Shown: positions 966 through 14,941 of the stretch, piece after piece
Layout of the letters: every line of letters starts with the position of its first letter
Position numbering within the stretch: the first letter of the stretch is position 1
Virus record (IMG/VR): IMGVR_UViG_3300021963_008171
Span: 10,995 to 74,994 of that record
Origin: a virus
Lineage: Duplodnaviria > Heunggongvirae > Uroviricota > Caudoviricetes
Length of the DNA: 64,000 nt
Strand: one strand, 5' to 3'
The notes under the pieces: generated by a model
What the model was told of the DNA's origin: nothing
Seen by the model: only the letters and a program-made list of their open reading frames with translations
Databases searched by the model: none
Made by a program: the position numbers and the translations under genes

Positions 966-972
966 AGTTCAT

Positions 973-1002: not shown

Positions 1003-1024
1003 ATTTCATTTTAGTAGATTTCCA

Positions 1025-1312
1025 CTACTTTTTAGCTTTTTTAGCTTTAGTTGTTTCAGCCTTCGCCGGTGCCTTTTTAGCAGCTGGTTTTTTTGCTGGT
1101 GCTTTTTTGGTAGCTGGTTTTTTAGCAGCCGGTTTTACCTTTTCGATAACAGCTGGTGCTGCTTCTACTGATACAACGGGTTCTTCTGCCTTTACCTCTA
1201 CAACAGGATCAGCTTTAACTGGCTCAGCCTCTTGGTTTTTTGGTTTTTTGCTAATCTTTGTGTAAGCAAAATAAGCTCCCAAAACTAAAATCGCTAGAAA
1301 TAATACTTGCAT
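1025..1312 (-). CDS. membrane-anchored Lys/Ala/Pro-rich protein (histone-H1/AlgP-like KKPAAKKAPAKK repeats)
   Basis: N-terminal hydrophobic helix MQVLFLAILVLGAYFAY. The C-terminal tail reads AAKKPATKKAPAKKPAAKKAPAKAETTKAKKAKK. Confidence 0.65.
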   Translation of the reverse strand: MQVLFLAILVLGAYFAYTKISKKPKNQEAEPVKADPVVEVKAEEPVVSVEAAPAVIEKVKPAAKKPATKKAPAKKPAAKKAPAKAETTKAKKAKK

Positions 1313-1327
1313 ATTTTTGGTTATTTG

Positions 1328-1338
1328 ATTTATATATC
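1328..1338 (-). promoter_or_regulatory. GATATATAAAT motif on the minus strand
   Basis: Plus-strand ATTTATATATC is the reverse complement of GATATATAAAT, 15 nt upstream of the minus-strand ATG at 1312. Confidence 0.4.
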
Positions 1339-1419
1339 ACTTAATTCTTTCGTTTTTGCATTTTTAATGGGGTCCTGAATCTTTTCAATACATTTGTGAT
1401 AGAATGAAAAAACATTTTT

Positions 1420-2100
1420 ATGAAGATAAAACACCCACTTGTTAAGGGAAAGGTTGAAATGATAAAACCGTTCATTTATTGTGTGGAGGTAAAGGATGAC
1501 TATGATAGAGCAATGCTTTTTTGTAGATACCAAGAATTTTACGAATCTCCTTATAAAAACATCAGGGGTAAGTATTTTAGCTGGGAAACATTTATGAGAA
1601 CATATACAAAAGAAAGGTTATCCGATTTCTTTACGTATCCTTTTGATTGGTCTGGTTATAATATACCATCTAATGTTTTAGAAAAAGGCATAGATACCTT
1701 TTATAAACAGAGCGAGTATGATAAGATAATGAGTGACATTTACTTTTATTGCTCAATAGATTCTCAAAATAAAAACAAAGGGACAAGAACAAAGTGGTAT
1801 TTAATAGGAGCTGATTCTAAAAAATCACAAACTATGAATCACGAAATAGCACATGGACTTTATTATACCAATAAAGAATATAAAAAAAGAATGGATCGGA
1901 TAATATCCGATATGAAGAAATCCAATTTTAAATTTATGAAAAAAGCATTAGTTAAAATGGGATATGCTGATGACGATAAAATTATATTTGATGAGATACA
2001 GGCATTTATGTCAACTGGTTTATATAAAACACTCGATAATGAAGATACAAGATCCTATCAGGACAGCTTCAAGGAGGTCTATAACGAATTTAATATATAA
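1420..2100 (+). CDS. hypothetical protein with an HExxH motif (NHEIAHGLYY); possible metallopeptidase-like fold
   Basis: 226-codon ORF. A single HEIAH motif is the only recognisable feature. Confidence 0.5.
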   Translation: MKIKHPLVKGKVEMIKPFIYCVEVKDDYDRAMLFCRYQEFYESPYKNIRGKYFSWETFMRTYTKERLSDFFTYPFDWSGYNIPSNVLEKGIDTFYKQSEYDKIMSDIYFYCSIDSQNKNKGTRTKWYLIGADSKKSQTMNHEIAHGLYYTNKEYKKRMDRIISDMKKSNFKFMKKALVKMGYADDDKIIFDEIQAFMSTGLYKTLDNEDTRSYQDSFKEVYNEFNI

Positions 2101-2103
2101 GGA

Positions 2104-2322
2104 ATGATCCCAAACAAAGAATATCTAGATCAGATAGCAAAAAAATTAGATTCGTTTAATAAGATAAACGGTGTTGATCCAGGAATGCGCAGGGATTTAT
2201 ACAACGATAACTTTGATTTTATGGATCATGCAGGAAAGGCTGCGATTGAATACATGAACAGGAGAAAAGAAGAACCCCAAAATTTTATAGATCCTCTATT
2301 CACGGATCACAATAAATACTAA
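2104..2322 (+). CDS. hypothetical protein
   Basis: 72 codons. The ATG is 3 nt after the previous stop, and the ORF is co-oriented. Confidence 0.5.
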   Translation: MIPNKEYLDQIAKKLDSFNKINGVDPGMRRDLYNDNFDFMDHAGKAAIEYMNRRKEEPQNFIDPLFTDHNKY

Positions 2323-2324
2323 TT

Positions 2325-2531
2325 ATGGATTTAAAAAAACTAGATCAAAAAACATTAAAAAAAGGCATAGCTGATAAGGGATGGAACATTCATCTACCAA
2401 ATCCATTAAAGCCTCAAGAAACCGTTTGGATTCATCAGGATCAAACCGGAATAGACACAAGGCAATACGTTAGAATAATACACTCAGAACCTAATGTTGT
2501 CTCAGTTTTTAGTAAAAGATATTTTGAATAA
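2325..2531 (+). CDS. hypothetical protein
   Basis: 68 codons. The ATG is 2 nt after the previous stop. Confidence 0.5.
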   Translation: MDLKKLDQKTLKKGIADKGWNIHLPNPLKPQETVWIHQDQTGIDTRQYVRIIHSEPNVVSVFSKRYFE

Positions 2532-2544
2532 AAATATATAGAGC

Positions 2545-2994
2545 ATGGGATATGAAATTAAGTTAATAGCAGGGGAGATAGGGGCAACTAAGACCTTTAT
2601 TGAGATTGCAAGCGTGGATCTATCCAAGATAGGAAACGGTCCATTAGCTAAGCTCGTTGCATATTCTAAAGGTAAGGAAACACCAGATTTTAGTGATTGG
2701 AAATTTTTAAAGGACGTCAAAGGGTCACATCTAGGAATAGATCCATCCGCCTCTGAGATATTTGACATTGGAATGAATTATAACAACGTTGAGATTTGGG
2801 ACGGTGATGAAAAAATAGGCGAAGATCTTTATGGAGATCCGCTCCCGGCAATCCCGGTTAAGCAGGTACTCGCTGCACTTCATGAGGAATTAAAATCTGA
2901 AAGATATAGAAGATTTGAACTTGCAAAACAGCTTCTCGAAGAACTCTCTACATCCAAATGGGATAACATTTTCGTAGTTCCCTACGGTCACTAG
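2545..2994 (+). CDS. hypothetical protein
   Basis: 149 codons. Preceded by AAAAATATATAGAGC; the identical 18-mer AAAAATATATAGAGCATG also precedes the gene at 29196. Confidence 0.55.
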   Translation: MGYEIKLIAGEIGATKTFIEIASVDLSKIGNGPLAKLVAYSKGKETPDFSDWKFLKDVKGSHLGIDPSASEIFDIGMNYNNVEIWDGDEKIGEDLYGDPLPAIPVKQVLAALHEELKSERYRRFELAKQLLEELSTSKWDNIFVVPYGH

Positions 2995-3035
2995 AAATTT
3001 TGCAAACGGGGAATATATAGAAAAAAACCCCGATT

Positions 3036-3164
3036 ATGGCAAAGGCAAAAGGAGCATCAAGCAGCCAAAAAATTACTTTTGGTAAAAGAAGAAACGGCAA
3101 GGCTAAGAAAACCCACAATAAACACGACCGCAAGGAAAGAAACTACAGAGGTCAAGGCAGATAG
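3036..3164 (+). CDS. very basic 42-aa protein (MAKAKGASSSQKITFGKRRNGKAKKTHNKHDRKERNYRGQGR)
   Basis: Not in the track (shorter than 60 aa). ATG 3036 lies 15 nt after GAATATATAG (3011-3020), and the ORF is co-oriented with its neighbours. It competes with the TTG-started antisense track ORF 2948..3133. Confidence 0.4.
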   Translation: MAKAKGASSSQKITFGKRRNGKAKKTHNKHDRKERNYRGQGR

Positions 3165-3218
3165 TCTCATTTTAGTTTTACGTAAAATAGTATTACCTTT
3201 ATATTCAAAAATAAAGGT

Positions 3219-3632
3219 ATGAATAAAACGTTGACTATAGTTAGGGGTTTACCCGGATCTGGTAAATCTACATTTGCAAATTTTATCTGGAATGATTACG
3301 CTATTTGTGAGGCTGATAAGTTCTTCTATGATAGCGAGGGACATTATCTTTTTGATCCATCTAAGCTAAAGGAAGCTCACAAGTGGTGCCAGGAAGAAGT
3401 TGAGAAAAGAATGCAGGAGAATCAAAACAATCCCCAATATTATCCAGAAATAGTTGTTTCTAATACATTCACACAGGAATGGGAAATGCAAGCATATTTC
3501 GATCTAGCAAAGAAGTACGATTACAAAGTATTTTCGATAATAGTTGAGAATAGGCACGGAAACACTAATATACACGGGGTACCTGACGATACACTCAAAA
3601 AAATGAGGGACCGATTTCACATATCATTATAA
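3219..3632 (+). CDS. P-loop kinase (AAA_33 / polynucleotide-kinase-like family)
   Basis: Walker A motif GLPGSGKST at the N-terminus, then VVSNTFTQEWEM and a C-terminal HGVPDDTLKKMRDRF, typical of small phage ATP-binding kinases. Confidence 0.7.
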   Translation: MNKTLTIVRGLPGSGKSTFANFIWNDYAICEADKFFYDSEGHYLFDPSKLKEAHKWCQEEVEKRMQENQNNPQYYPEIVVSNTFTQEWEMQAYFDLAKKYDYKVFSIIVENRHGNTNIHGVPDDTLKKMRDRFHISL

Positions 3633-3679
3633 ATTAATATTTAATATTTTTATCAGGGGGGATTTTTGTCTTTCAGTCG

Positions 3680-3710
3680 GATATATAAACTGAAAAAATC
3701 CTCATTCCGT
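3680..3710 (+). promoter_or_regulatory. leader box copy 1: GATATATAAAC-TGAAAAAATCCTCATTCCGT
   Basis: Near-identical to 11676-11707. It starts a 168-nt untranslated leader ahead of envelope module I. A strong hairpin (3748-3755 pairing with 3783-3790, plus an inner AGGG/CCCT pair) follows. Confidence 0.5.
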
Positions 3711-3791
3711 GAAAAAAGATACGACCTTTTTACACGAAGATAGTTACAGTCTTTCAGGACAGGGAAACACGAAGCCCTATCAGAAAGACTT

Positions 3792-3799
3792 TATATTTG
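3792..3799 (+). promoter_or_regulatory. TATATTTG = Bacteroidetes-type TAnnTTTG -7 box
   Basis: Exact match to the TAnnTTTG consensus, 47 nt upstream of ATG 3847. Confidence 0.4.
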
Positions 3800-3822
3800 T
3801 CCCTCTCCTGGGATAGTGTGGA

Positions 3823-3847
3823 TTTTTTCCAATTTAATTGGAAAAAA
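3823..3847 (+). promoter_or_regulatory. perfect 12-nt inverted repeat abutting the start codon
   Basis: TTTTTTCCAATT (3823-3834), then T, then AATTGGAAAAAA (3836-3847). The last A is the A of ATG 3847. Confidence 0.4.
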
Positions 3848-4353
3848 TGACAAAGACACTTAAAATCCTATTTATAGCAATTTTTGCTATGGCATTTTCC
3901 TTTCAATCTTTCGGACAAGGAAAATCTGTTCTCATAGGGGAAATCACTAACAAAATTCAAATTGGAAATCTAGCAGGATCTAGGCCATTAACTTTTGGCT
4001 TTAGAAATCTATTGGAGGAATACCTTCAAGAAAACGATTTTGACATCGTAGAAGACGAGACTAAATTTGATTACAAGGTCAACATAGATCTTCTTTTCTT
4101 TGATGTTGAGACCACAAAGTCTAGCGTTGCAATATTCCACAAAAACAATGCAGAGACAGTACTAAAAATAAAGGCATATCTTTTAGATAATAAGGGGAAG
4201 AAAATAAAAGAATGTTTAATAACAGAAAAAGCTTCCGAGATTTCAACATCAACTTTAATAGTTGACGAGGGCGGAAAAATGAATCAACAATCGGTTTCTA
4301 CAGTTATTAAAAAGGTGTGCGGAACAGCAATAAAACAATTATTAACACAATGA
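3847..4353 (+). CDS. secreted short CsgG-like protein
   Basis: Signal peptide MTKTLKILFIAIFAMAFSFQSFGQ. The blocks FGFRNLLEEYLQENDFDIVE, DYKVNIDLLFFDVE and VLKIKAYLLDNKGKKIKE align by eye with CsgG-family blocks and with the paralog at 13503. Confidence 0.5.
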   Translation: MTKTLKILFIAIFAMAFSFQSFGQGKSVLIGEITNKIQIGNLAGSRPLTFGFRNLLEEYLQENDFDIVEDETKFDYKVNIDLLFFDVETTKSSVAIFHKNNAETVLKIKAYLLDNKGKKIKECLITEKASEISTSTLIVDEGGKMNQQSVSTVIKKVCGTAIKQLLTQ

Positions 4354-6005
4354 AAAAACTAATTTTATTATCAGTATTTTTTCTCCTGTTTGGATTCTCA
4401 GGATTTGCACAATTGACGATTAGTCAATCCCTAACACCTACCTCGGGTTTAAAGGTTGGTGACACGATTACAGTTAGATATAATTTAACGAAAGGAACAG
4501 TGATTAAGAATCCTCGTTATCTTTGGTTTAGATATCAGTTTAACAACAAAGCTCTGACTTATGTTTCAACTGCTTTCAATCAAGGATCATCTTCTCAAAC
4601 ATTCTATACAGGTTGGAGCAATTATAAGTTTACGCCAAACGGCGGAGCAAGTGACAATGATCTGGATGTCCAGTATGGTTTAACCCCTTGGAACTACGCA
4701 GTTAATTCTGATTGGAATGTTGGTCAATTAGCGGTTCAAAGAGCAGACCAATCTATTAATGGGTTAATCGCAACACAAAAGTACATTTTGAAGGATCAAA
4801 ATACCTACAACAATATCTTTAAAATAGATTTAGCATCAGGTACGGATACAACAGGTGCAAATGTTGGAACTATTTACGGCGGGGGTTGGTCTTCTATATC
4901 CGGTGTAACTGGTAACACTTCACAATTCAAGGTGAAAGTACTATTCCCTCAGGGATATGCAATCTCTGACCATAATGTTCAATTAATGAAATTAAAATCA
5001 GACGGTAGCGGAGATATCGATTGGTCACAACAGCCTATTGCTCAATTACCTCTAGATGCTACTGGAGAGGCTCTTTTCACAACGCAGGTTAAAGTTGGTG
5101 ATAGCGTTGGTGTGTTTGTATCACCAGCATCCCAAAAATCTTGGATGAATAATGTGATCACGGTTTCTGATGCTTATAAGGCATTTTTAGGACACACACA
5201 AACTGATATCGGCGGAACTGCAAACTTTTTCACTTATCCAGTTTTGGAGAAAAAGGTAGGAAATGTTACTAAAAACGATGCAACGTTTAACGAAGCGGAT
5301 TCTTATAATTTATTCGCTTATGTAATGGGACAAGACGTGTCAGCAAACGCATTCATTCCTACAAGCACTGTGACATCTTGGAGATGGTATAGCGGTTTAT
5401 TAAATCAAAGTTGGTTAGACGGAGTTATTAAGAATAGGGTATTAATTGATACACCTATCAAAGAGGTTTATGCTGTATATGCTTGGGGAGGTGATTTAAA
5501 CTGGTCTCACTCATCAGATCCTGCAGTGATTGCAAGTAGAATATCAGCTGGACAGTATACGAATTCTGTAAATTCAATTCAGACAAACTCTGTTAAATCA
5601 ATGAGTAGTGTTTCCATGGCTTACAGAACAGAAGCAGTTGAAACTGCTAAGCTAAGCGTAACATCAACTTTAGAAAATGGCAAGGTTATTTTAACAACAA
5701 CTTTAACTAAAGCAGAACTAGCAGGTTTACAAGTTGTTATGAACTATGACGAAAGCAAATTAACATTGGATAACGTGGTGTTCGATGCAGGTTCTACTAT
5801 AACGAACTTCTCAACCCACGATGGTGGTAGATTAACATTTGGTTCTATAGATCAATTAAAAACAGCAAGAATTAAAACTGGTACACCTTATAAATTAATC
5901 TTCACACCAAAGGTAGCATTATCAAACACTGCGGGATTATTCTACTTTGTACTATCAGACGCAGTTGACGGCAAAGGAAATAAAATCGACCTAATAGTTG
6001 AATAA
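4350..6005 (+). CDS. secreted protein with a C-terminal cohesin-like module
   Basis: ATG 4350 forms an ATGA overlap with the previous stop. Signal peptide MKKLILLSVFFLLFGFSGFAQ. The C-terminus LQVVMNYDESKLTLDNVVFDAGS...YKLIFTPK parallels the C-terminus of the next protein. Confidence 0.65.
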   Translation: MKKLILLSVFFLLFGFSGFAQLTISQSLTPTSGLKVGDTITVRYNLTKGTVIKNPRYLWFRYQFNNKALTYVSTAFNQGSSSQTFYTGWSNYKFTPNGGASDNDLDVQYGLTPWNYAVNSDWNVGQLAVQRADQSINGLIATQKYILKDQNTYNNIFKIDLASGTDTTGANVGTIYGGGWSSISGVTGNTSQFKVKVLFPQGYAISDHNVQLMKLKSDGSGDIDWSQQPIAQLPLDATGEALFTTQVKVGDSVGVFVSPASQKSWMNNVITVSDAYKAFLGHTQTDIGGTANFFTYPVLEKKVGNVTKNDATFNEADSYNLFAYVMGQDVSANAFIPTSTVTSWRWYSGLLNQSWLDGVIKNRVLIDTPIKEVYAVYAWGGDLNWSHSSDPAVIASRISAGQYTNSVNSIQTNSVKSMSSVSMAYRTEAVETAKLSVTSTLENGKVILTTTLTKAELAGLQVVMNYDESKLTLDNVVFDAGSTITNFSTHDGGRLTFGSIDQLKTARIKTGTPYKLIFTPKVALSNTAGLFYFVLSDAVDGKGNKIDLIVE

Positions 6006-6006
6006 T

Positions 6007-8301
6007 ATGAGATTTTTATTATTTATATTATTTTCTCTAATATCATTTTTAGGGTTCGGACAGAGTGTATCTGCTCCGGACTCTAAATCGTTTATACCAT
6101 CCACAACCGGCCAAGATGGGAGTGGATTCCAATTAAGTGGATTTAGTGCAACATCTACTTTATTAGCATCAATCAGTTTAATCAATCCATCAACAAATAC
6201 TACATTTTACCTTAACGATACACGAGGATTAATTGCCGCAAGTGGATTTACTTTAACGGGTAATAAAACTCGTTTAGTGGTATTGGGAACAATGTCAGAT
6301 ATTAATACTGCATTGGTATCTTTAAAAGTTAATACAGGTTCTGTAGTTGGTAATGTTCAATTATCGGTAGCGGCAACTGTAAACCCTGTTGGATTCTTTT
6401 ACAATGGAGTTAATGGACATTTTTACAAACCCATAACCGCAACCAATGAAAGAACTTCATACACACTTGCAAGAAGTAGGTCATTGCTAACTACATTCAA
6501 AGGACAGACAGGCTATTTGGTAACAATAACATCGGCTTCCGAAGATGCATTTATATTCGCAAATGTTCCTGCAACTAATGTATGGTTTGCTGCAACAGAT
6601 GAAATAAAAGATGGAACTTGGGTAATTGATGCTGGTCCTGAAAAAGGTACTGTGATGAAAACCTCAAATGGACAAACTAATGGAAACATTCCTGGCGTAT
6701 ATAACAACTGGGCACAAGGTGAACCAAATGGTAGTAATGGTAGTGAGAACTATGCAGTGGCAAAGTGGAATGGTGCTGCAAATTGGAACGATTTATCAAA
6801 CAATTGGAGTAATCCTTATGTAATTGAATACGGAACTTGGACTAACCCTGATGATGCAACATTTACTGAATTCTATACTAATAGTGTAACTCACTCAAAT
6901 GGGGAAGTATTGAGAGCAGCATTCAATGTTGATTTCGGAACTAATGTAGATGAAACAAAATTTTCAGCAAAAGCAAATACGTATGTAAATAATTTATGGG
7001 GTACAACAACTAACACATCAAGATCAATTAGTGGATTAGGTAAAGTAGATGTTACAAATGATTTGGATACTGTAAAGATTCAAAACGGAGGATACGTGGG
7101 TTCAATAGTAGGAGGGCAGGTAGAATGGTCTTATGTTAATTTTTATAACGGAGCAACCACACTTTACATTGACATGAGAAAGTTTGGTGCGATCGGTGCA
7201 AATTCTGTATCACACATTACACTCTTAGATGTATACAGTGGACCTGTTACCTTTTTAGGAAATGATGCAACCTGGGCAAGATATACGATACCCTCGACCC
7301 TTCCGAAAGTAACAAACGGAACGTCAACAAATTCACAATATATTCGCAACGCTGGATACGGAGATTATGCATTTATGTGTGAGATTTCATTTGAACTTAA
7401 TCGTGAATATAAACAACACGGAATAGAATTATCGTATACTAATCAAACAGATTTGAACACCCTGTATAATAGTATCGTTACTGTATCTGATGTGTTTATA
7501 GCATTTAAAGAATTATCAAATGGCGGGATATTTGGGGATCAAAGCGGATTGGAATTTACCAACGGTATTCAATTTATGAACGCAGATGTGGACGGTAATG
7601 GATTATTCAATGAATCCGACACGTATAAATTATTACAGCACCTAACTGGAGTTCAGCCATTAACACAAAATCCATTATTAACATTCTTGATGAAGCTTTA
7701 TAGCAAATCTGATTATGATGCAATTACAAAATCAAATTGGAACACAAGATTTAATTCTACGAGAAGTCTATTTCCATTTAGTTTAAATACGGGTACCCTT
7801 AATAACACATACAATGTGAACGTAACCTGGATAGGTGACGTAAACCTTTCTCATTCGGCACAACAAACTGCAAGCGGTGTTGCAACCAATTCATATAGAA
7901 GCATGAGCCTAATGACTAATACAACCACTAATGAAATAAATGCATCAATCATGGGTGAAAATGTTGGAGGTAAGGTTATAGTAACGATATCAGTAGACCC
8001 ATTACAGCAAGAATTAGTAGGAACCCAATTCCAGTTGAATTATGATAATACCTCGTTGGAATTTCAAAAAGTAGATTTTATAACAAAAGGTAATCCAACA
8101 AATTTTGGAACAGATAAAGGATCTTATATCACATTGGGATCATTAATCACTGATGGATCAACAATATTAGACAAAACAACAGAATATAAAATAACATTCG
8201 TACCAAAAATTGGATTAACTGGAACATTAGGGTTAACTTCTGTTTCAGCAACAGATGCTGTTAATAAAGCAGGAACTCAATTAAAAGTAAAATTAAACTA
8301 A
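6007..8301 (+). CDS. secreted multidomain protein: C-type lectin, dockerin-like EF-hand repeat and cohesin-like C-terminus
   Basis: Signal peptide MRFLLFILFSLISFLGFGQ. C-type lectin signature GHFY...YLVTITSASEDAFI...WFAATD...WAQGEPNGSNGSENYAV...WNDLS...YVIEYG. Dockerin-like MNADVDGNGLFNESDTYKLLQHLTG. C-terminus FQLNYDNTSLEFQKVDF...YKITFVPK. Confidence 0.75.
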   Translation: MRFLLFILFSLISFLGFGQSVSAPDSKSFIPSTTGQDGSGFQLSGFSATSTLLASISLINPSTNTTFYLNDTRGLIAASGFTLTGNKTRLVVLGTMSDINTALVSLKVNTGSVVGNVQLSVAATVNPVGFFYNGVNGHFYKPITATNERTSYTLARSRSLLTTFKGQTGYLVTITSASEDAFIFANVPATNVWFAATDEIKDGTWVIDAGPEKGTVMKTSNGQTNGNIPGVYNNWAQGEPNGSNGSENYAVAKWNGAANWNDLSNNWSNPYVIEYGTWTNPDDATFTEFYTNSVTHSNGEVLRAAFNVDFGTNVDETKFSAKANTYVNNLWGTTTNTSRSISGLGKVDVTNDLDTVKIQNGGYVGSIVGGQVEWSYVNFYNGATTLYIDMRKFGAIGANSVSHITLLDVYSGPVTFLGNDATWARYTIPSTLPKVTNGTSTNSQYIRNAGYGDYAFMCEISFELNREYKQHGIELSYTNQTDLNTLYNSIVTVSDVFIAFKELSNGGIFGDQSGLEFTNGIQFMNADVDGNGLFNESDTYKLLQHLTGVQPLTQNPLLTFLMKLYSKSDYDAITKSNWNTRFNSTRSLFPFSLNTGTLNNTYNVNVTWIGDVNLSHSAQQTASGVATNSYRSMSLMTNTTTNEINASIMGENVGGKVIVTISVDPLQQELVGTQFQLNYDNTSLEFQKVDFITKGNPTNFGTDKGSYITLGSLITDGSTILDKTTEYKITFVPKIGLTGTLGLTSVSATDAVNKAGTQLKVKLN

Positions 8302-9194
8302 TGAAAAGGATAACAATCATATTAATCTTACTTTTCATAGGGGTTTATTCTAAAGCACAAATTGTAAAACCTGATACGTTACAGCTTTCACCTAAAGAAT
8401 TGTTTGGTGAGAGTGATGATTGGAATGATATAGGTATATTACAATCCTATATTGATTTTTCAAAAGACGTTCTTTCATCCTCAAATCTATCTGTTGGTAT
8501 AATCGGAAAACAGGTGTCAAGTACTTTAAATCTGGGATACAGTAAATGGTCTAATAATGGAGTATGGGGACACTCATTTTCCACATCAATAAATCCGATA
8601 TGGAATTATTATGGTGTTGGTTATGGATTTAGTAGAAATACTGATAAGAGAACAACAACATTACAAACATTCTATTCAACTGATTTTGATTTTCAAAAAG
8701 ATATCAGTATTTCATTTATAGATGTTTTCAGGACAAAAAAGTTTGGGACATTTGGGTATAGCTTAATTGCATCAAAAACATTTTGGGGAACATATGAAGG
8801 AGCATGGGAAGGAAAATACACAGTTGATGCGAATGGTAATTTTTTGGATTTGATTTACCCACAAATGCCGGCATCATCCGAAATGATTTATAAAGGAATG
8901 TTAATGTACACATATACAATCAAAACAAAGAGAGTTAATATATCCCCACAAATATTTGCTATGAGCGACATCTATAAAGATTTTAAGGATGGTACCTCTT
9001 CGGATTTAGCATATCTTGATGATTTCAATTTGGATTTATATTATGGTACATCATTCGATTGGAAAATAACTAAAAGATTTGTTTTAAACACTAATATTAG
9101 ATTCAACAAAACGTGGGATAAATTAAGCGAGTCTGTTGGATATAAAAAAAGTAATCCAATAATGTTTATGATAGGAACAAACTTTCAATTTTAA
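8301..9194 (+). CDS. outer-membrane beta-barrel-like protein (paralogous to the C-terminus of 10224..11669)
   Basis: Signal peptide MKRITIILILLFIGVYSKAQ. Alternating aromatic/Gly-rich strands with a terminal ...MIGTNFQF. Shared blocks: ISPQIFAMS/IAPQVFVTS and GTSFDWKITKRFVLNTNIRFN/GFSYDYKLTGRFGLNLNYRFS. Confidence 0.6.
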   Translation: MKRITIILILLFIGVYSKAQIVKPDTLQLSPKELFGESDDWNDIGILQSYIDFSKDVLSSSNLSVGIIGKQVSSTLNLGYSKWSNNGVWGHSFSTSINPIWNYYGVGYGFSRNTDKRTTTLQTFYSTDFDFQKDISISFIDVFRTKKFGTFGYSLIASKTFWGTYEGAWEGKYTVDANGNFLDLIYPQMPASSEMIYKGMLMYTYTIKTKRVNISPQIFAMSDIYKDFKDGTSSDLAYLDDFNLDLYYGTSFDWKITKRFVLNTNIRFNKTWDKLSESVGYKKSNPIMFMIGTNFQF

Positions 9195-9197
9195 AAG

Positions 9198-9455
9198 ATG
9201 AAAAAAATATTAATTATATCATTTTTATTCTTAACAATATCATCTTGTACTAGTTACAAGATTAGGGTAATACAGTATGATGGAACTGGATATTCGTTGT
9301 ATTTGCCAATGAAAAAACACGGATTGGATAAATGGTACGATGATAACATTGTGTACTATTCTGAAGAGATGGCAAGGTTTAAAATTAAAAAATGGAAGAG
9401 TGAGGAATATCATTCGGATCCGTGGAAAAAACCAAAATACATTAAAATAAATTAA
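9198..9455 (+). CDS. small lipoprotein
   Basis: MKKILIISFLFLTISSC contains a lipobox Cys. 85 codons. Confidence 0.6.
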   Translation: MKKILIISFLFLTISSCTSYKIRVIQYDGTGYSLYLPMKKHGLDKWYDDNIVYYSEEMARFKIKKWKSEEYHSDPWKKPKYIKIN

Positions 9456-9799
9456 TGAAAAAGATATTATTCATATTTCTGATTTTACTGTATGGATGTA
9501 CTAAACCGGAGTTACCAACACCGGCACCGCCAGTCGAAAAAATATTTGATGTTGGGGAGAGTAGTGTTACCAATGGACAATCTTTGTATTTTGATTTACC
9601 ATCACCTGGAGTTTATATTTTATCCTTAATTGATAAAGAGACAAACCAAGTAATAAGCAGAGAAAAATTCGTGGGTCAGATTGGGGAGAATTCAAGAAAG
9701 ATCTATACCAATTCTATAAAATCACAAACGCTATATCTATTGTTGTCAGATTCTTCTAAAAACGAGATGAAAAGAACAACTATATTAATAAGAAAATAA
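9455..9799 (+). CDS. small lipoprotein, beta-sandwich-like (T9SS-CTD-like pattern)
   Basis: MKKILFIFLILLYGC lipobox. The stretch GQSLYFDLPSPGVYILSLIDKETNQVIS...LYLLL resembles the Por-secretion-tail / Ig-like pattern. Confidence 0.55.
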   Translation: MKKILFIFLILLYGCTKPELPTPAPPVEKIFDVGESSVTNGQSLYFDLPSPGVYILSLIDKETNQVISREKFVGQIGENSRKIYTNSIKSQTLYLLLSDSSKNEMKRTTILIRK

Positions 9800-9810
9800 A
9801 ATAAAAAGAA

Positions 9811-10185
9811 ATGAAAAAATCACTAATCTTCTCAATCTGCGTTATTCTATTTGCAGGATGTACAAAAGACGACATGCTAATTCCTATGCAGGAACAAATT
9901 AAACCAGAGCTTGCTATTCAAAACAGCGTGGGTATTAAATTAGAAACCCCATTTGTTTCCAAGGAAGTTTCAATGAACGTAAAATTGGAAAAGGAAGGTA
10001 CTGTAGTTATTAAAATAACTGACATATCAAATAGAGTTGTATCTAAGGAACAGGTTAATGTAAAGGCTGGAGATAATCTATTGAAAGTTTATACCTCTGC
10101 TTTACCATCTTCTTCATATAGAATTGGTATCTACGACTCTAGTAACAATCTTCTAGGAATAACAGACTTTAATAAGATAAACTAA
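9811..10185 (+). CDS. small lipoprotein, beta-sandwich-like (T9SS-CTD-like pattern)
   Basis: MKKSLIFSICVILFAGC lipobox. The stretch VVIKITDISNRVVSKEQVNVKAGDNLLKVYTSALPSSSYRIGIYD matches the xIxIxDxxGRxV...G.N...L..G.Y pattern. Confidence 0.55.
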   Translation: MKKSLIFSICVILFAGCTKDDMLIPMQEQIKPELAIQNSVGIKLETPFVSKEVSMNVKLEKEGTVVIKITDISNRVVSKEQVNVKAGDNLLKVYTSALPSSSYRIGIYDSSNNLLGITDFNKIN

Positions 10186-10223
10186 AAGATTATCTTAAAA
10201 TATTTGAGGCGGAGAAAAATTGA

Positions 10224-11669
10224 ATGAAGAAATTATTATTGTTCCTTTTATTGGTAGTAGCATCCTTTGCTGCTAGTGCACAGACCTTCACCCAGACCTA
10301 TGTGGATAAATGTACTGGGGAGCTCAAAGTTGTGGTGTCTGCTCCTATGCCCAATGGTGGAGTAATGATTTCTTTTTATAATCAAATGAAGATATTCACG
10401 AATGCGCAGGTCAATGACGGAACGGTTCAAAAATGGCTGAATCAAGTTTATACTGATTATAATACAAGACCTTGTCCAGTAAGTACTGTTGCTGTACAAA
10501 CAGTTCAACAAACTGTTGCACAAGCGGCATCAGCTGCTGCATCTGCTGCAGCTTCTTCCGCAGCAAGTAATGCAGCTTCATCTGCAGCTAGTTCTTCGGC
10601 ATCAGCTGCTGCTTCATCGTCTGCAAGTAGCGCTGCAAGTTCTTCTGCATCATCTTCTGCTAGTGCTTCTGCTGGTTCATCCGCGGGTGCTTCTGCTGGT
10701 TCATCAGGAGGTCCTTCTTCTCAAAGCTCAGGCGGATCTTCAGGTTCATCTAGCTCTAACGGGGAAAGTAAAAGTAGTGGATCATCATCAGGAGAATCAA
10801 AATCTGAAAGTAAAGCTGAATCAAAATCTGAAAGTAAATCAGAATCAAAATCCGAAAGTAAAAGTGAGGAGAAGAAAGAGGAAAGCAAATCTGAGAGTAA
10901 AAAAGAGGAGAAGAAAGAGGAGAATAAAAAAGAAGAAGAGAAGAAAAAAGAGGAGGAGAAAAAGAAAGAAGAGGAAAAGAAGAAGAAAGAAGAGGAAAAG
11001 AAGAAGAAACAATCCGTTAGTAATCCCACACTAGTTGCTTCCGATCTTGCAGTAACACAAGGAAATGACGGTAGATATTCTGCTATGATATCAACAGGTA
11101 TAAGCAAATCTTCCATGACGGGAACGGAAAGTTGGGGATTAACATCCATGATATGGACAACATTTGATCAATTTGCTTTGAATGGCGGATACACTAAAAT
11201 GAATTTCGAAAAAGGCAAATTAAAGAACATAGATTCATATTCTATGACATTAGCATACCTTCAGGGAAATATCATGATTATGCAGGGTTATACGCACATT
11301 AAACCGGATCCTAAGATAGGTACTTATGGATTTAACGTAGGAGTTGTTAGCTTATTATTAAAGGATGGAAATAAGTATACCTATTCTGCTTCTTTTTCGT
11401 CCATCGGATTTTGGACAAAGATTTATCAGGTAAATAAAAAAACATCAATAGCTCCTCAGGTTTTCGTAACAAGCTCCCCGATATCATGGAATCCAAACAC
11501 CAATCAAACCTTGGTAAACAGACATTACGGATATATGACAGGGTTTTCGTATGACTACAAATTAACTGGAAGATTCGGGCTTAATCTAAATTATAGATTT
11601 TCTGGATCAACCCAAGCGGGAACACCGATATTGCATAATTTTATGATAGGATCGAGGATTATGCTGTAG
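10224..11669 (+). CDS. secreted protein: N-terminal domain, long Ser/Ala to Ser/Gly to Ser/Glu/Lys to Glu/Lys low-complexity linker, and C-terminal beta-barrel-like domain
   Basis: Signal peptide MKKLLLFLLLVVASFAASAQ. The linker spans roughly 160 residues. The C-terminal ~200 aa are paralogous to 8301..9194 and end ...FMIGSRIML. Confidence 0.65.
   Translation: MKKLLLFLLLVVASFAASAQTFTQTYVDKCTGELKVVVSAPMPNGGVMISFYNQMKIFTNAQVNDGTVQKWLNQVYTDYNTRPCPVSTVAVQTVQQTVAQAASAAASAAASSAASNAASSAASSSASAAASSSASSAASSSASSSASASAGSSAGASAGSSGGPSSQSSGGSSGSSSSNGESKSSGSSSGESKSESKAESKSESKSESKSESKSEEKKEESKSESKKEEKKEENKKEEEKKKEEEKKKEEEKKKKEEEKKKKQSVSNPTLVASDLAVTQGNDGRYSAMISTGISKSSMTGTESWGLTSMIWTTFDQFALNGGYTKMNFEKGKLKNIDSYSMTLAYLQGNIMIMQGYTHIKPDPKIGTYGFNVGVVSLLLKDGNKYTYSASFSSIGFWTKIYQVNKKTSIAPQVFVTSSPISWNPNTNQTLVNRHYGYMTGFSYDYKLTGRFGLNLNYRFSGSTQAGTPILHNFMIGSRIML
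10523..11010 (+). repeat. coding low-complexity tract including a 3 x 24-nt tandem repeat (10794-10865)
   Basis: GAATCAAAATCTGAAAGTAAAGCT, GAATCAAAATCTGAAAGTAAATCA and GAATCAAAATCCGAAAGTAAAAGT encode ESKSESK(A/S). GCN/TCN runs lie upstream and GAA/GAG/AAA/AAG runs downstream. Confidence 0.85.
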
Positions 11670-11675
11670 AAAAAA

Positions 11676-11707
11676 GATATATAAAGTTGAAAAAATCCTC
11701 ATTCCGT
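11676..11707 (+). promoter_or_regulatory. leader box copy 2: GATATATAAAGTTGAAAAAATCCTCATTCCGT
   Basis: Matches 3680-3710 except for one substitution and one inserted T. It begins 7 nt after the stop of 10224..11669 and heads a 168-nt leader before ATG 11844. Confidence 0.5.
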
Positions 11708-11843
11708 TAGCAAGAAATCTACATTTCTTCGTACGTCTTTTCAAAACTAGCTGGCTTATTGCCGGAAACCTGTATGAAAGGCGGGTCTCAACTTTGAGTA
11801 TTTTTTCTAGGTATTAAAAAAAACCGAATATAAAATAAACAAA

Positions 11844-12158
11844 ATGAGCGAAGAAACAGAAAACGACGGAACCTGGTCAGGTTTAAAAAAGACAATCGTA
11901 GGAGTACTTGGTACAGTAGTAACTGCAGGTGGAGTATTTTTAACTACACTATTAGGAGGCGGAGATAAAGACGAAGCCCCAGCACCAGCAGCCCCAGTAA
12001 TTAACATCACAAACTCAAATCAACAGCAACAAGCAGCAGGAAAAACCGTGATTATTCAGGGTGGCAACAATGGCGGAACAGGCAAACCAGCAGCTCCAGC
12101 TCCAGCACCTAAGAAGAAAGAAGGTGATGAGTTTAAAGAGGAAGCACCAAAATGGTAA
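11844..12158 (+). CDS. single-pass membrane protein with Pro/Ala-rich segments
   Basis: TM helix IVGVLGTVVTAGGVFLTTLLGGG, then APAPAAP ... KPAAPAPAPKKK. Confidence 0.55.
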   Translation: MSEETENDGTWSGLKKTIVGVLGTVVTAGGVFLTTLLGGGDKDEAPAPAAPVINITNSNQQQQAAGKTVIIQGGNNGGTGKPAAPAPAPKKKEGDEFKEEAPKW

Positions 12159-12334
12159 ATATGGAACAAGGGCTAAGTTTCATAGCAGTAGTTGCAGTAT
12201 GTTCAATAGCTATGTTTGTATTTAATTCACCAATAATGTTTTTAACATCTTTTATAATTGGATGTAGCTACTTGGTATTAAGAGGGAGAAAAAAGGGGTG
12301 GAGATTACCCAAAGATATAAAAAATACACATTAA
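12152..12334 (+). CDS. small two-helix membrane protein
   Basis: LSFIAVVAVCSIAMFVF and IMFLTSFIIGCSYLVL. The start is either ATG 12152 or ATG 12161. Confidence 0.45.
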   Translation: MVNMEQGLSFIAVVAVCSIAMFVFNSPIMFLTSFIIGCSYLVLRGRKKGWRLPKDIKNTH

Positions 12335-12348
12335 TAGAATAAATTAAA

Positions 12349-12918
12349 ATGGCAGAAAAAAATCAACAACCAAGTGGATTTAAAGACCTATTAAACTCGA
12401 TGATGACCCGCAGATGGTACATCACCGCATTAGTGTTAGGCGGATTTATGCTAATACTAGCAGGAATGTTTGCAGCTATAGGAATAGGAACCAAAATGGC
12501 AGGAGAATGGAAAGAGCTTCTTCTTTTATTATTAGGGGCTTTTATTGGCTCTTATGGTAAGATTATAGACTACTGGTTCTCAGATACCGACAAAGACAAG
12601 ATGCTAGTTCAGAAGATGGACGAAGAAGATGGAACTACTTTATCTCATACTAATGACATGAAGGAAACTAACAAGCCATACGCACCAACTATCCCTGATG
12701 CATTTGTTGCAGGAGCACAAGCTGCTAGAGAATTAGCAGTGGTTGAAAATCAGCAAAATTTTGAATTGGCTAAGGATCAACAAGAGCACGAGCAGGAAAT
12801 GGAAAAGCTTGAATATGAATCTCATAGACAATGCGAGCATGAATGGGGTGATTCCGATAATGATGGAGAACTTGAATGTCAAAAATGCGGATTGTTAAAA
12901 GACAATTTCGAGGGTTAA
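12349..12918 (+). CDS. membrane protein with an acidic/coiled C-terminal domain containing a CxxC pair
   Basis: Two hydrophobic helices (WYITALVLGGFMLILAGMFAAIGIG and LLLLLLGAFIGSYG). The C-terminus reads ...HRQCEHEWGDSDNDGELECQKCG. Confidence 0.55.
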   Translation: MAEKNQQPSGFKDLLNSMMTRRWYITALVLGGFMLILAGMFAAIGIGTKMAGEWKELLLLLLGAFIGSYGKIIDYWFSDTDKDKMLVQKMDEEDGTTLSHTNDMKETNKPYAPTIPDAFVAGAQAARELAVVENQQNFELAKDQQEHEQEMEKLEYESHRQCEHEWGDSDNDGELECQKCGLLKDNFEG

Positions 12919-12942
12919 TCCCAAACAATATAAAATAATAAC

Positions 12943-13197
12943 ATGACTTTTAAAGAATGGATCATAGATCTTTTTAAAGACGAAAGAGGAGCAATTTCAG
13001 TAAAACCTGTGATTGCATTTGTTGGATCATTATTCCTTTGCGGAACGATGTTAGCTAACTCTTTCAGTGAAGAGCATTTTAAACCAGCAGCAGAATTGGT
13101 GAATGCAGTAATGGTAATAACAGCAATCGGTATGGGCGCTGATACATTAGATAAATTCACTAAGAAAGCACCTGCGGACAAGCAAGAAGAAGCTTAA
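12943..13197 (+). CDS. small two-helix membrane protein (holin-like size and topology; unproven)
   Basis: Helices VIAFVGSLFLCGTMLANSF and LVNAVMVITAIGMGA with a charged C-terminus. A hairpin follows at 13204-13225. Confidence 0.5.
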   Translation: MTFKEWIIDLFKDERGAISVKPVIAFVGSLFLCGTMLANSFSEEHFKPAAELVNAVMVITAIGMGADTLDKFTKKAPADKQEEA

Positions 13198-13203
13198 AGT
13201 TGA

Positions 13204-13225
13204 GGAACGGGTTAATCCCCGTTCC
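13204..13225 (+). terminator. terminator-like hairpin
   Basis: GGAACGGG, loop ttaatc, CCCGTTCC: a perfect 8-bp stem 7 nt after the stop. The downstream tract is only weakly T-rich. Confidence 0.4.
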
Positions 13226-13258
13226 CTTCAAATACAAATAAAACACGACTAAACCCCC

Positions 13259-13492
13259 ATGAAAAATCAATTAACAAAAGCAAGTGAATTTCTATTTCAC
13301 GTATACCTAAGACTTTGTCTGTGCTGGGTATTTTTTGCACTAGGAATACAGGTATTCTTTGTGTATTTACAAGTTAGCGATCAACAAGAAAGAATGCGTC
13401 AATATTCAAACGAATTCGAATGGAAATTTGACGGAAGATTTAAAAACAATCCAGAAAACATTATGTACGAAGGACCGACATCTGAAAAATAA
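13259..13492 (+). CDS. small membrane protein
   Basis: Hydrophobic segment FLFHVYLRLCLCWVFFALGIQVFFVYL. 77 codons. Confidence 0.45.
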   Translation: MKNQLTKASEFLFHVYLRLCLCWVFFALGIQVFFVYLQVSDQQERMRQYSNEFEWKFDGRFKNNPENIMYEGPTSEK

Positions 13493-13502
13493 TTAGGAAA
13501 GA

Positions 13503-14240
13503 ATGAAAAAGCAAATATACAACATCTCAATACTGGTCATCGTTTTTATGATTGGTTTTGTTCTGACTACAAAAGCTCAGACTATAGGTAAAACGAAAAC
13601 TGAAGATTTTAAAGCGGACTTCGAAAAGAAGAAGGATATTTCAGCATATCTTGATTACGAGGGTCCAAAGAAAAATATTCAATTGTTAAAGTGCGGAATC
13701 AATGATGAAACGTACGAGGCATATCCAGAATTAAAAGAAAAAAGAGTAGGACTTGGTGTTACTAACATCGTATTAGAATATCTTGATAACCTAAATAGAT
13801 TCGAATTCACTGAGGATAAAACCGAGATTAAAAACAGAATGGTGAAGCAATTCCAAGCATCACAATCTGGAATTTCTGAAAACAAATTAGACGGTAGAGG
13901 AAAGATAAAGCTAGCACACTATTTTGTTGAAATTGAAGTCTATGATTATTCAGTATCTGAAGACGAGTCAATTAGTCTAAAGGATGGCATCAAAGATAAT
14001 CTTGTAACAAGATTGGGTCTTCAGGTTAGATTTACTAATGCAGAGACTGGAGCAATAATAGCAGCATCTGGATTAGGTGAGGCTAAAACAACTAGGGAAT
14101 TAACTCTTGTTGCTGATGCTTCTGTTGACCCTATTAAATTCAATCAATCTACAATTAGTATTTCAACCAAAAAAGCATTGGATATAGCATGTGCAAACAT
14201 TCTAGATAAGATGATTAGAAAGGGAGTATTCCCTCAATAA
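13503..14240 (+). CDS. CsgG-family-like secretion/assembly protein
   Basis: Signal peptide MKKQIYNISILVIVFMIGFVLTTKAQ. The blocks GVTNIVLEYLDNLNRFEFTE, LAHYFVEIEVYDYS and LGLQVRFTNAETGAIIAASGLGEAKT align by eye with E. coli CsgG blocks (ATAMLVTALKDSRWF, ANIMVEGSIIGYES, IAVNLRVVNVSTGEILSSVNTSKT). Confidence 0.65.
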   Translation: MKKQIYNISILVIVFMIGFVLTTKAQTIGKTKTEDFKADFEKKKDISAYLDYEGPKKNIQLLKCGINDETYEAYPELKEKRVGLGVTNIVLEYLDNLNRFEFTEDKTEIKNRMVKQFQASQSGISENKLDGRGKIKLAHYFVEIEVYDYSVSEDESISLKDGIKDNLVTRLGLQVRFTNAETGAIIAASGLGEAKTTRELTLVADASVDPIKFNQSTISISTKKALDIACANILDKMIRKGVFPQ

Positions 14241-14293
14241 ATTTAGGTATAGCTTAAAACACTATGCTTTAGTTACACGACCTAAAGTATAAA

Positions 14294-14941
14294 ATGAACT
14301 TAAAACACGACAATTCCTCACTTAACACCATAGTAGTGGTGTTCTTTCTAGCAATCTCACAACTATTCTACAGCTGTAAGAATAACAGTTCCCCTAGGAA
14401 AGTATCCGATAAAGATAAAGCATCAATAAGTAAAGGATTGTCAGATACAACATTTATTCACGACACCGTGTATGTGGATAATTTAATTCCGTTCGAAGTT
14501 TTAAGGGACACCATAATTTATAGAGATGTCCCGGCTATCGTTGACACTGCTGCGATATTGGGAATGTATAATGTTAAAAAAGTTAAAATCGATACACTCA
14601 AGCTTGATTATGGCTATATCACAGTGGTTGATACTGTTTCTGGAGGTAATATCCTATCTAGAAAATATTTCTCTAAGATTAAGGTACCTGTTAAAGAGAG
14701 GATCGAAAAGATAAAAGAAGAACCTAGGGGTAATCTGTATTTAGGCCTGAATGGGGGTTTAGATAAACCTAACTATGTTTACTCCCTGGGGACTTCTTTT
14801 CTCTATAAAACACCTAAGGATAAAATTTACGAACTTGGTATAGGGGTTTGGAATATGACATCTAATGGAATAGATGGCCAATTCATTCCGTATGTAAAAG
14901 GAGGGGTTTACTGGAAGGTTAACCTCAAAGGGAAGAAATAA
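14294..14941 (+). CDS. lipoprotein with a beta-rich C-terminal domain
   Basis: TIVVVFFLAISQLFYSC lipobox-like signal. The C-terminus is Gly/aromatic-rich (GNLYLGLNGGLDKPNYVYSLGTSFLYK...GGVYWKVNL). Confidence 0.55.
   Translation: MNLKHDNSSLNTIVVVFFLAISQLFYSCKNNSSPRKVSDKDKASISKGLSDTTFIHDTVYVDNLIPFEVLRDTIIYRDVPAIVDTAAILGMYNVKKVKIDTLKLDYGYITVVDTVSGGNILSRKYFSKIKVPVKERIEKIKEEPRGNLYLGLNGGLDKPNYVYSLGTSFLYKTPKDKIYELGIGVWNMTSNGIDGQFIPYVKGGVYWKVNLKGKK

Follow-up and report, generated by a model that had tools for sequence, protein, structure and literature searches.

Two membrane-protein operons of a freshwater Bacteroidota-type phage are headed by a promoter-like motif and an undescribed folded leader RNA

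Two operons headed by one box

A 64,000-nt stretch of a tailed phage genome (Caudoviricetes; IMG/VR record IMGVR_UViG_3300021963_008171, positions 10,995 to 74,994), hereafter called the window, contains two operons of membrane and secreted proteins, each preceded by an untranslated leader that opens with nearly the same box of 31 or 32 nt. This box joins a phage promoter motif to the opening bases of an undescribed folded leader RNA of 120 to 140 bases, and the leader, judging from its predicted structures, probably controls translation of the first gene of each operon. The first genes are as follows.

3847 to 4353, + strand: first gene of operon 1, encoding a 168-amino-acid secreted protein with the signal peptide MTKTLKILFIAIFAMAFSFQSFGQ
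11844 to 12158, + strand: first gene of operon 2, encoding a 104-amino-acid single-pass membrane protein (MSEETENDGTWSGLKKTIVG...), from its translation

The eight products of operon 1 (3847 to 11669) have a signal peptide, a lipoprotein box or an outer-membrane-barrel-like C terminus. Operon 2 encodes mostly small membrane proteins and runs from 11844 to about 17966, with a strong terminator at 18010 to 18040. The proteins of both operons obtained no Pfam or PHROG family assignment, and "envelope modules," as they were called in the initial annotation, is a fair description. Two paralogous outer-membrane-barrel-like proteins are encoded at 8301 to 9194 and 10224 to 11669; the latter contains a long low-complexity insert, Ser/Ala rich and then Glu/Lys rich, which is encoded by repeats at 10525 to 11015.

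The two boxes, GATATATAAACTGAAAAAATCCTCATTCCGT (3680 to 3710) and GATATATAAAGTTGAAAAAATCCTCATTCCGT (11676 to 11707), lie exactly where they had been placed, and one substitution and one inserted T are their sole differences. When both strands of the 64 kb were searched, the 16-mer core AAAATCCTCATTCCGT matched perfectly only at the two leaders, and a single further site was found within three mismatches, a three-mismatch match in coding sequence. The leaders had been described as exactly 168 nt long. From box start to ATG they measure 167 nt (3680 to 3847) and 168 nt (11676 to 11844), and from a conserved G within the box (3692 and 11689) to the ATG the distance is 155 nt in both. The latter distance is mostly 139 to 160 nt in relatives and 174 to 182 nt in one lineage, a spread that shows the equality of leader length between the copies to be only loosely constrained. 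It had also been stated that most intergenic gaps are shorter than 60 nt, which is correct for 68 of the 89 gaps; the other 21 are not, and several of them exceed both leaders.

A general promoter-like motif opens the box

The box consists of two parts: a general promoter-like motif, GATATATAAA, which forms its first ten bases, and the 5' strand of an RNA helix, P1, which starts from G3692 or G11689. The motif and its relatives at the loci of interest are listed here.

3680 to 3689, + strand: promoter-like motif GATATATAAA of leader 1, with predicted start G3692 at an offset of 12 nt
11676 to 11685, + strand: promoter-like motif GATATATAAA of leader 2, with predicted start G11689 at an offset of 13 nt
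11826 to 11833, + strand: GAATATAA motif, 18 nt before the ATG at 11844, conserved in every leader of the operon-2 kind (type 2) that was found
60281 to 60297, + strand: ATATATAATCCTCAATT before the transfer-messenger RNA (tmRNA), a promoter motif only and not a leader copy

In the window, GATATATAAA occurs in eight exact copies, all within the approximately 8% of the DNA that is noncoding and each facing the next gene, where about one copy would be expected by chance (our estimate from base composition). Several of these copies directly follow a hairpin with a T-run. The shorter form ATATATAA is present 14 times, 12 of them intergenic, including one that lies 33 nt before the 5' end of the tmRNA. 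At three genes (motifs at 138, 28500 and 42934) the motif begins 12, 12 and 13 nt before the ATG, and one of the genes with this offset belongs to a paralog family whose products all begin with MKH, which fixes its start codon. Because the distance from the motif start to the conserved G of the leaders (12 nt in copy 1 and 13 nt in copy 2) equals this motif-to-ATG offset, we infer that G3692 and G11689 are the transcription starts. On the same sequence grounds, some genes would have leaderless or near-leaderless mRNAs. The motif precedes each of three MKH paralogs (22746, 28512 and 29463), and at 62796 it lies 8 to 9 nt, measured from its start, before an ATG.

The promoter in Bacteroidota recognized by host sigma-A consists of a -33 TTTG and a -7 TAnnTTTG element. 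No conserved upstream partner of the phage motif was detected, and a generic sigma-70 scan performed at chance level (74 sites found versus 78.9 expected). The literature search returned no relevant work on Flavobacterium phage promoters. For this group of phages, the short motif GATATATAA can serve as a working model of a promoter that also covers the apparently leaderless mRNAs.

The initial annotation had read the box as a promoter plus a conserved 5' transcript end, which is supported, as the promoter-like motif is followed by a conserved predicted 5' end. A trans-acting regulator may also bind the box, as the annotation had offered as an alternative. It had also considered the promoter to be dedicated to the two operons; this does not hold, as the eight exact copies of GATATATAAA and the 14 of ATATATAA stand before unrelated genes and the tmRNA as well. 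The shorter relative of the box reported before the tmRNA is indeed present (ATATATAATCCTCAATT, with the tmRNA starting at 60314), but the part in common is the promoter motif only. As the covariance model of the leader (see below) has no match at the tmRNA, the suggested coregulation of the tmRNA comes down to this motif alone.

The transcript 5' end closes a conserved four-way junction

From the predicted transcription start onward, both leaders fold into the same architecture. In the helix P1, the bases predicted to come first in the transcript are paired with GGATTTTTTC, which lies about 110 to 130 nt downstream, and the hairpins P2 to P4 are enclosed between the two strands. The elements of the two copies, all on the + strand, are the following.

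3692 to 3829, + strand: copy 1 of the leader RNA element, 138 nt, which forms a four-way junction with P1 as its closing helix (covariance model R1 and minimum free energy [MFE] fold)
3692 to 3706, + strand: P1 5' strand of copy 1, the box segment GAAAAAATCC plus TCATT, with 14 pairs to 3815 to 3829
3708 to 3736, + strand: P2 hairpin of copy 1 (CGTGAAAAAAG / CTTTTTACACG), with compensatory changes at four of nine pairs across homologs
3738 to 3798, + strand: P3 arm of copy 1, the core of which is an 8+4-bp hairpin at 3748 to 3790; all pairs of its sub-helices have changes on both sides
3799 to 3814, + strand: P4 hairpin of copy 1 (TCCCT...GGGAT), helix 6 of the model with 80% of cells paired; a weak terminator-like site in the terminator scan
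3815 to 3829, + strand: P1 3' strand of copy 1 (AGTGTGGATTTTTTC), the U-run strand (fold and pairing comparison)
11689 to 11807, + strand: copy 2 of the leader RNA element, 119 nt, built on the architecture of copy 1 (model R1; the MFE fold forms P1)
11689 to 11701, + strand: P1 5' strand of copy 2 (GAAAAAATCCTCA), with 12 pairs to 11795 to 11807
11705 to 11735, + strand: P2 hairpin of copy 2 (CGT..AAGAAAT / ATTTCTT..ACG; fold and covariance model)
11795 to 11807, + strand: P1 3' strand of copy 2 (TGAGTATTTTTTC; fold and pairing comparison)

The MFE fold of copy 1 has an energy of -44.7 to -46 kcal/mol (z = -4.85). P1 formed in the unconstrained MFE folds of all 23 distinct homologs that were folded, and it was followed by P2, the central arm P3 (base CUUU/AAAG) and the short hairpin P4. 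The helix terminates exactly at the pair between the first base, G1, and a C. The hairpin at 3748 to 3790 noted previously in leader 1 is present, as is TATATTTG at 3792 to 3799, which lies on the 3' side of the P3 arm immediately before P4. TATATTTG, considered as a possible TAnnTTTG element of a host sigma-A promoter, is kept in one close relative and replaced by TTTATTTG in two others (loci L023 and L029), and it is absent from leader 2. The downstream parts of the leaders had been described as different but structured. Both are structured, but rather than differing in design they share one architecture, P1 closing P2, P3 and P4, with covariation in 25 independent homologs.

The covariation was assessed with a covariance model, R1, which was trained only on four ungapped copies of one distant lineage and with which the window was searched with filters off. 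A sequence-only MAFFT alignment analyzed with RNAalifold gave almost no structure, as its columns were not structurally aligned, and the covariance model was used instead. Exactly two sites were found in the window, both at full model length: copy 1 (34.2 bits; E value, 1.2e-7) and copy 2 (29.7 bits; E value, 2.4e-6), for which the reverse strands scored 12.1 and 10.3 bits, respectively. The next match had an E value of 0.11. Among 25 homologs outside the training set, 85.4% of cells were paired, compared to 74.9% in shuffles, and changes on both sides of a pair (compensatory changes) were observed in 98 cells, compared to 35.5 in shuffles; none of 500 shuffles reached the observed value in either comparison. 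The covariation score was 0.234 versus at most 0.068 with slid partners, and a 19-sequence version of the test yielded similar numbers. The homolog alignment was fitted to the model and thereby favors structure; nevertheless, the controls with slid partners, and the fact that many types of pair occur, argue strongly for a structure. As is asked of a riboswitch, the predicted 5' untranslated region (UTR) thus has a conserved fold with covariation support.

The variation within P1, including that in copies sampled via the downstream proteins (see below), bears on the nature of the box. Insertions and deletions in the two strands are length matched, with A5/U5 in two lineages, A6/U6 in most and A7/U7 in one, the closest relative. 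In the box variant GAAAGAA, which occurs with U6, the A-to-G change is kept as a G-U pair, and the partner of U8 is A in 15 of the 25 sequences and G in 9. Because the partner strand shows such G-U-compatible changes and length-matched indels, the conserved part of the box is best read as one side of an RNA helix; neither kind of change would arise in a plain DNA operator.

The inverted ends of the element, 10 to 13 bp long (GAAAAAATCC...GGATTTTTTC), could also be seen at the DNA level: they might bound a miniature mobile element as its terminal repeats, or they might be paired operator half-sites for a DNA-binding protein. Terminal inverted repeats around approximately 100 bp, in two copies per genome that are both intergenic, would suit either. 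However, the interiors of copies from the same genome are unrelated in sequence but have a common fold, the internal helices contain compensatory changes, and the G-U pairs work on one strand only. Furthermore, the orientation and the distances to promoter and start codon are fixed, no target-site duplications were found at the flanks, and the reverse strand scores poorly with model R1. We regard a DNA-level element as very improbable. A miniature inverted-repeat mobile element in particular was rejected, as there are only two copies with unrelated interiors and unduplicated flanks, and as their position and orientation are conserved across phages.

The sequence UCCUCAU within the box is invariant in every copy recovered, and its partners in P1 vary or are absent. 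This bears on another reading of the fold, in which a stable leader pairs the first mRNA base and passively shields two long mRNAs from 5'-end-dependent decay, as does the ompA 5' UTR, with no switching involved. Such a stabilizer would agree with the position of P1, which begins at the predicted +1 and is blunt ended in all copies, and with downstream genes that encode abundant envelope-type proteins. A simple protective hairpin, however, would need neither a conserved four-way junction nor an invariant single-stranded UCCUCAU, nor would it need a 3' strand with a tail tailored to each start region (see below), which makes mere stabilization an improbable function.

The leader family is an undescribed one. 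At gathering thresholds, Rfam 15 (4,227 models, among them riboswitches, ribozymes, Y RNA and phage motifs) detected only tmRNA and tRNA in the whole window, and permissive scans of both leaders (E values up to 10) produced only far-subthreshold chance matches to eukaryotic microRNA and small nucleolar RNA models. The box sequence was in no paper found by the literature search. Structured cis-regulatory leaders as such are well known, and it is the A-run/U-run logic of this one, as proposed below, that is unusual.

Distribution of the leader and joint variation of its two copies

Many contigs from IMG/VR and from metagenomes proved to contain the element when searched with patterns; it always follows GATATATA, and every large contig recovered had two copies. 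All belong to one clade of Bacteroidota-type uncultured freshwater phages. Six pattern matches in GTDB genomes were dismissed, as the rest of the element is missing there and they look like chance. Among isolated phages, there was no nucleotide match to positions 3000 to 13000 and no protein match to the outer-membrane-like gene.

Because patterns containing the box built in part of its apparent invariance, loci were resampled via the downstream proteins. Relatives of the gene that opens operon 2 are present on 422 viral contigs; the best 80 of these loci comprise 57 distinct upstream regions, of which only 7 contain the leader. In all seven, the upstream gene is an outer-membrane-like gene homologous to the one at 10224 to 11669 in the window, whereas in most leaderless relatives the first gene of operon 2 follows a lipoprotein gene, with a short A-rich spacer between them. 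At loci L102 to L181, the product of that lipoprotein gene ends in ...ITDFNKI and is a homolog of the product of 9811 to 10185. As most relatives of the downstream gene lack the leader, it is an innovation confined to a single clade. In most relatives, the two modules are contiguous and make up a single block. For the first gene of operon 1, six close relatives were found, all of which have the leader and are located on the same contigs as a type-2 copy.

Variants of the box are shared within a genome: CATAC is present in both copies on two contigs, CATTC in both copies of the window, and in another phage the first ~55 nt are common to its two copies. Such joint variation could reflect gene conversion between the copies or, alternatively, a common factor by which this region is read. 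Together with the pairing of the copies in relatives, it supports the earlier proposal that the box marks the two operons as a coregulated pair. In one lineage, the element of operon 1 (type 1) is reduced to P1 and P2 (~61 nt). Such mini leaders, which consist of the box, P2 and UGAGGGUUUUC, are located at 1022 to 1083 in L184, 1025 to 1085 in L187 and 6905 to 6965 (- strand) in L076. They are followed by an 11-bp hairpin, GGUUUUCUGAA/UUCAGAAAACC, that reuses the same U-run and constitutes another mutually exclusive pairing.

As a unit with its own promoter motif and a U-run at its end, the element might instead be an independent gene for a trans-acting noncoding RNA of 110 to 140 nt, with the 5' box as its seed or a Ro60-like protein as its partner, and the operons would then be served by promoters of their own. 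The motif GAATATAA, which is one base shorter than the promoter motif, may be such a second promoter or part of the start region; it is located 18 to 22 nt before the start of the first gene of operon 2 in all leader-bearing type-2 loci (e.g., L024, L031, L003, L105 and L139). A Ro60-like protein is encoded in the window, and Y RNAs, like the element, have paired termini. However, the U-run of type-1 leaders is only 16 to 18 nt from the ATG, with no promoter motif in between, which means that operon 1 is read through the element. The element keeps a conserved position with respect to the start codon, and the box has no complementary target on either strand of the window. A small RNA separate from the operon is thus possible for type 2 but not for type 1, and for the family as a whole this explanation is distinctly improbable. 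Y RNA identity was considered and rejected: there is no Rfam match to Y RNA, and the elements lie 15 to 23 kb from the Ro60-like gene (26845 to 28470), which has a structured 529-nt upstream gap of its own.

A proposed switch at the translation start

A Shine-Dalgarno-like core precedes only 6 of 81 genes in the window, and A accounts for 50% of the 20 nt that precede the starts. The host translation system is thus of the Bacteroidota type, which does not use Shine-Dalgarno pairing. Start regions of this kind are naturally complementary to a U-run, and in leader 1 the U-run of P1 has an alternative partner there.

3823 to 3847, + strand: alternative sequestor hairpin of copy 1 (TTTTTTCCAATT / AATTGGAAAAAA), -11.5 kcal/mol, which reuses the P1 U-run and ends on the A of the ATG at 3847

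This 12-bp hairpin corresponds to the 12-nt perfect inverted repeat (3823 to 3834 and 3836 to 3847) that had been noticed previously. In L023 and L029, the arms are TTTTTTCCTA and TAGGAAAAAA, and pairing is kept via changes on both sides, the arms differing as CCAATT/AATTGG versus CCTA/TAGG. In three other lineages, the U-run and its tail pair with the start codon or with codons 3 to 6 (-9.9 to -12.9 kcal/mol), and none of 76 control start regions from the window showed equal or better complementarity to the U-run in this three-lineage comparison. As the first genes differ between lineages, the complementarity appears to be tailored to each start region.

With 30 nt of coding sequence included, the MFE structure flips from P1 to the sequestor in several leaders. 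In constrained ensembles, the start region was more open with P1 closed than with P1 open in 11 of 13 leaders (openness of 0.78 versus 0.44 in copy 1 and 0.97 versus 0.27 in copy 2), and the two states were within 2 kcal/mol of each other in 6 of the 13.

We propose that the promoter element GATATATAA, which is -10-like and has no conserved upstream partner, sets the transcript start 12 to 13 nt from the motif start, so that the transcript would open with a conserved structured leader of 108 to 141 nt. Its first 10 to 14 bases (GAAAAAAUCCUCAU) would pair with (UGA)GGRUUUUUUC near the start codon to form the closing helix P1, which would hold P2, P3 and P4 together as a four-way junction. The U-run strand of P1 and the bases that follow it are also complementary to the A-rich translation start region. 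With P1 closed, the U-run would be occupied and the start site open; with P1 open, the U-run would sequester the start site. The 5' box would then mimic the start site as a decoy and hold the anti-start U-run in a paired state. Candidate triggers are a protein or small ligand that binds the invariant UCCUCAU and the junction, the kinetics of folding, and removal of the 5' end. The best explanation would be a promoter together with a leader that works in cis, switching conformation to control the gene that opens each of two membrane or envelope operons, and we hold it about as probable as all others together. It is favored because the start-codon region could pair with the U-run strand of P1 as well; the switch and its direction are both read from modeled structures.

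The box bases (C)UCAUU are in addition complementary to AAUGA(G) across both start codons (3701 to 3706 with 3845 to 3849, and 11698 to 11703 with 11842 to 11847), and CUCAU also matches the anticodon loop of initiator tRNA; either may be due to chance. A reading of the box as a tRNA mimic was rejected, as CUCAU is located in the junction here and not in a hairpin loop.

Several observations weigh against the proposed switch. Unconstrained in silico deletion of the box barely changed start-site accessibility in most leaders, and in lineage "BB" there was no difference between the P1 states. The U-run does not match the start region better than it does in controls in the case of copy 2, its closest relatives and the L024 group. 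Energy predictions for A/U-rich RNA are unreliable. Pairing within P1 alone does not explain the invariance of UCCUCAU, and the early impression of an invariant box came partly from searching with the box itself. As a second promoter, GAATATAA would make the type-2 leader a separate RNA. Finally, the U6-7 tract that follows the G-rich strand could also serve as a terminator.

Owing to this U-tract, attenuation or antitermination of transcription is the main rival. In that case, P1 or its G/C-rich upper part would form with the U-run an intrinsic terminator ~130 nt after the promoter, as in the lambda pR'-tR' 6S unit. An antiterminator would prevent P1 or modify the polymerase, possibly via the invariant box, or the leader itself would modify the polymerase as does HK022 put RNA. 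The U6-7 tract follows the G-rich strand in every copy, and genuine terminators of the same style (A-run, stem and U-run) occur in the window, e.g., before 28500 and 42934. The terminator scan lists P4 and the tail of leader 1 as a weak site but has no site in leader 2. The stem beside the U-tract is just 3 to 6 bp (upper P1) and closes a multibranch loop. Moreover, the A-run and U-run match in length and a conserved C after the U-run pairs with G1, which points to selection for pairing in an RNA that continues beyond the U-run. Efficient termination at P1, combined with sequestration when P1 is open, would leave both states off. The two copies heading two long operons are in keeping with an antiterminator, as HK022 has putL and putR at the heads of two long operons. 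However, a scan of positions 1 to 20000 (+ strand) revealed no internal terminator that would need to be bypassed in either operon, the first strong one being that at 18010 to 18040, and no Q-, N- or NusG-like protein was found among 40 window proteins that were scanned. Overall, we consider an attenuator unlikely.

The proposed switch can be extended to the tentative possibility that the leader belongs to a sensor RNA class of its own, as a riboswitch or as a target bound by a phage-encoded protein, and times two envelope-remodeling operons during infection by large freshwater phages. Its logic would fit translation without Shine-Dalgarno pairing, with the A-run box mimicking the start, the U-run acting as an anti-start and the UCCUCAU junction reading the signal. 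The downstream genes have no metabolic annotation that hints at a ligand, and the Pfam/PHROG scan of the 40 window proteins yielded no sigma factor, antiterminator or RNA-binding regulator.

The leader family is outside Rfam and the literature searched, and it belongs to uncultured freshwater Bacteroidota phages in which gene regulation is almost unexplored. If the switch model is true, translation would be gated here with an A-run, a U-run and a decoy in place of the usual elements, and the leader would provide a handle on the timing of a large set of unannotated secreted and membrane proteins in these phages.

Other features of the window

The assignments obtained among the 40 scanned proteins were an AAA_33 kinase, a 2OG-Fe(II) oxygenase, a cytidylyltransferase, NT5C, radical SAM proteins, sugar epimerases and a Ro-like protein; there was also a subthreshold winged-helix match. 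The Ro-like protein (Ro60/TROVE-like gene, 26845 to 28470) belongs to PHROG 850 and is 50% identical to gp540 of Bacillus phage G. The 529-nt gap upstream of its gene (26316 to 26844) is gene free; CATATATAAA, which is promoter-like, lies at 26360, and a hairpin carrying a run of 10 T's (T10) is located near 26786 to 26822. The segment from 26372 to 26825 folds with a z score of -5.1, and Rfam finds nothing there. This gap is a candidate for a Y-RNA-like noncoding RNA.

The phage tmRNA (60314 to 60728; Rfam, 80 bits) has a tag that ends in ...GADYALAA and was missed by ARAGORN. It is directly followed by a tRNA-Met (CAT) at 60738 to 60812. An open reading frame (ORF) that runs off the end of the window (62805 to 64000) encodes collagen-like Gly-X-Y repeats with a 9-nt period and is preceded by AATATATAAATG. 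A cluster at 41695 to 55234 contains at least three radical-SAM-domain genes and two sugar-epimerase-like genes and has internal paralogous repeats, e.g., 53389 to 53450 and 54801 to 54862. Further gaps of more than 400 nt without a confident ORF are located at 17967 to 18394, 20246 to 20781 and 60813 to 61233, the first of which holds the strongest terminator of its region (18010 to 18040).

Comparison with known systems

The promoter part of the box is similar to the late promoters of T4-type phages (TATAAATA, recognized by gp55), which likewise have a short AT-rich -10-like motif without a -35 element, stand before many genes and often follow a terminator. In contrast, the motif here is GATATATAA, and several of its starts would give mRNAs that are leaderless or have very short leaders; the search for a gp55-like sigma factor was confined to the window. 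The lambda pR'-tR' 6S leader, on which Q acts, also combines a late-type promoter with a U-tract 130 to 190 nt further on, before a long operon. It differs in that the U-tract of the present leader is inside a conserved long-range helix and has no canonical terminator hairpin, and no Q-like protein was encoded among the 40 proteins scanned.

The putL and putR elements of HK022 are likewise two promoter-proximal cis-acting RNAs per genome at the heads of long operons, in which structure is kept and sequence differs. However, put RNA consists of two stem-loops of ~70 nt without a terminal closing helix and acts on RNA polymerase to bypass terminators, whereas no downstream terminators needing bypass were found here.

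In the 5' UTR cloverleaf of phage MS2, which exerts kinetic control over the maturation gene, the 5' end pairs beside the first start codon, three hairpins are enclosed, and translation depends on the long-range helix. The sign is opposite: the MS2 helix hides the ribosome binding site and is off at equilibrium, while the helix described here would hide an anti-start sequence. The leader also differs in belonging to a DNA phage, in its two copies and in a host without Shine-Dalgarno-based initiation. Translational ON riboswitches, such as the add adenine riboswitch of Vibrio vulnificus, have a 5'-UTR domain closed by P1 in which the 3' strand of P1 alternatively pairs with the start region, so that a closed P1 means an open start. 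Unlike them, the leader has no Rfam aptamer match or known ligand, it would sequester an A-run together with the start codon, not a Shine-Dalgarno sequence, and the 5' strand of its P1 is the very 5' end of the predicted transcript and nearly invariant. By analogy, then, the leader would functionally most resemble a translational ON riboswitch and the MS2 5' cloverleaf, with a sign opposite to that of MS2, in a two-copy layout that recalls putL and putR of HK022.

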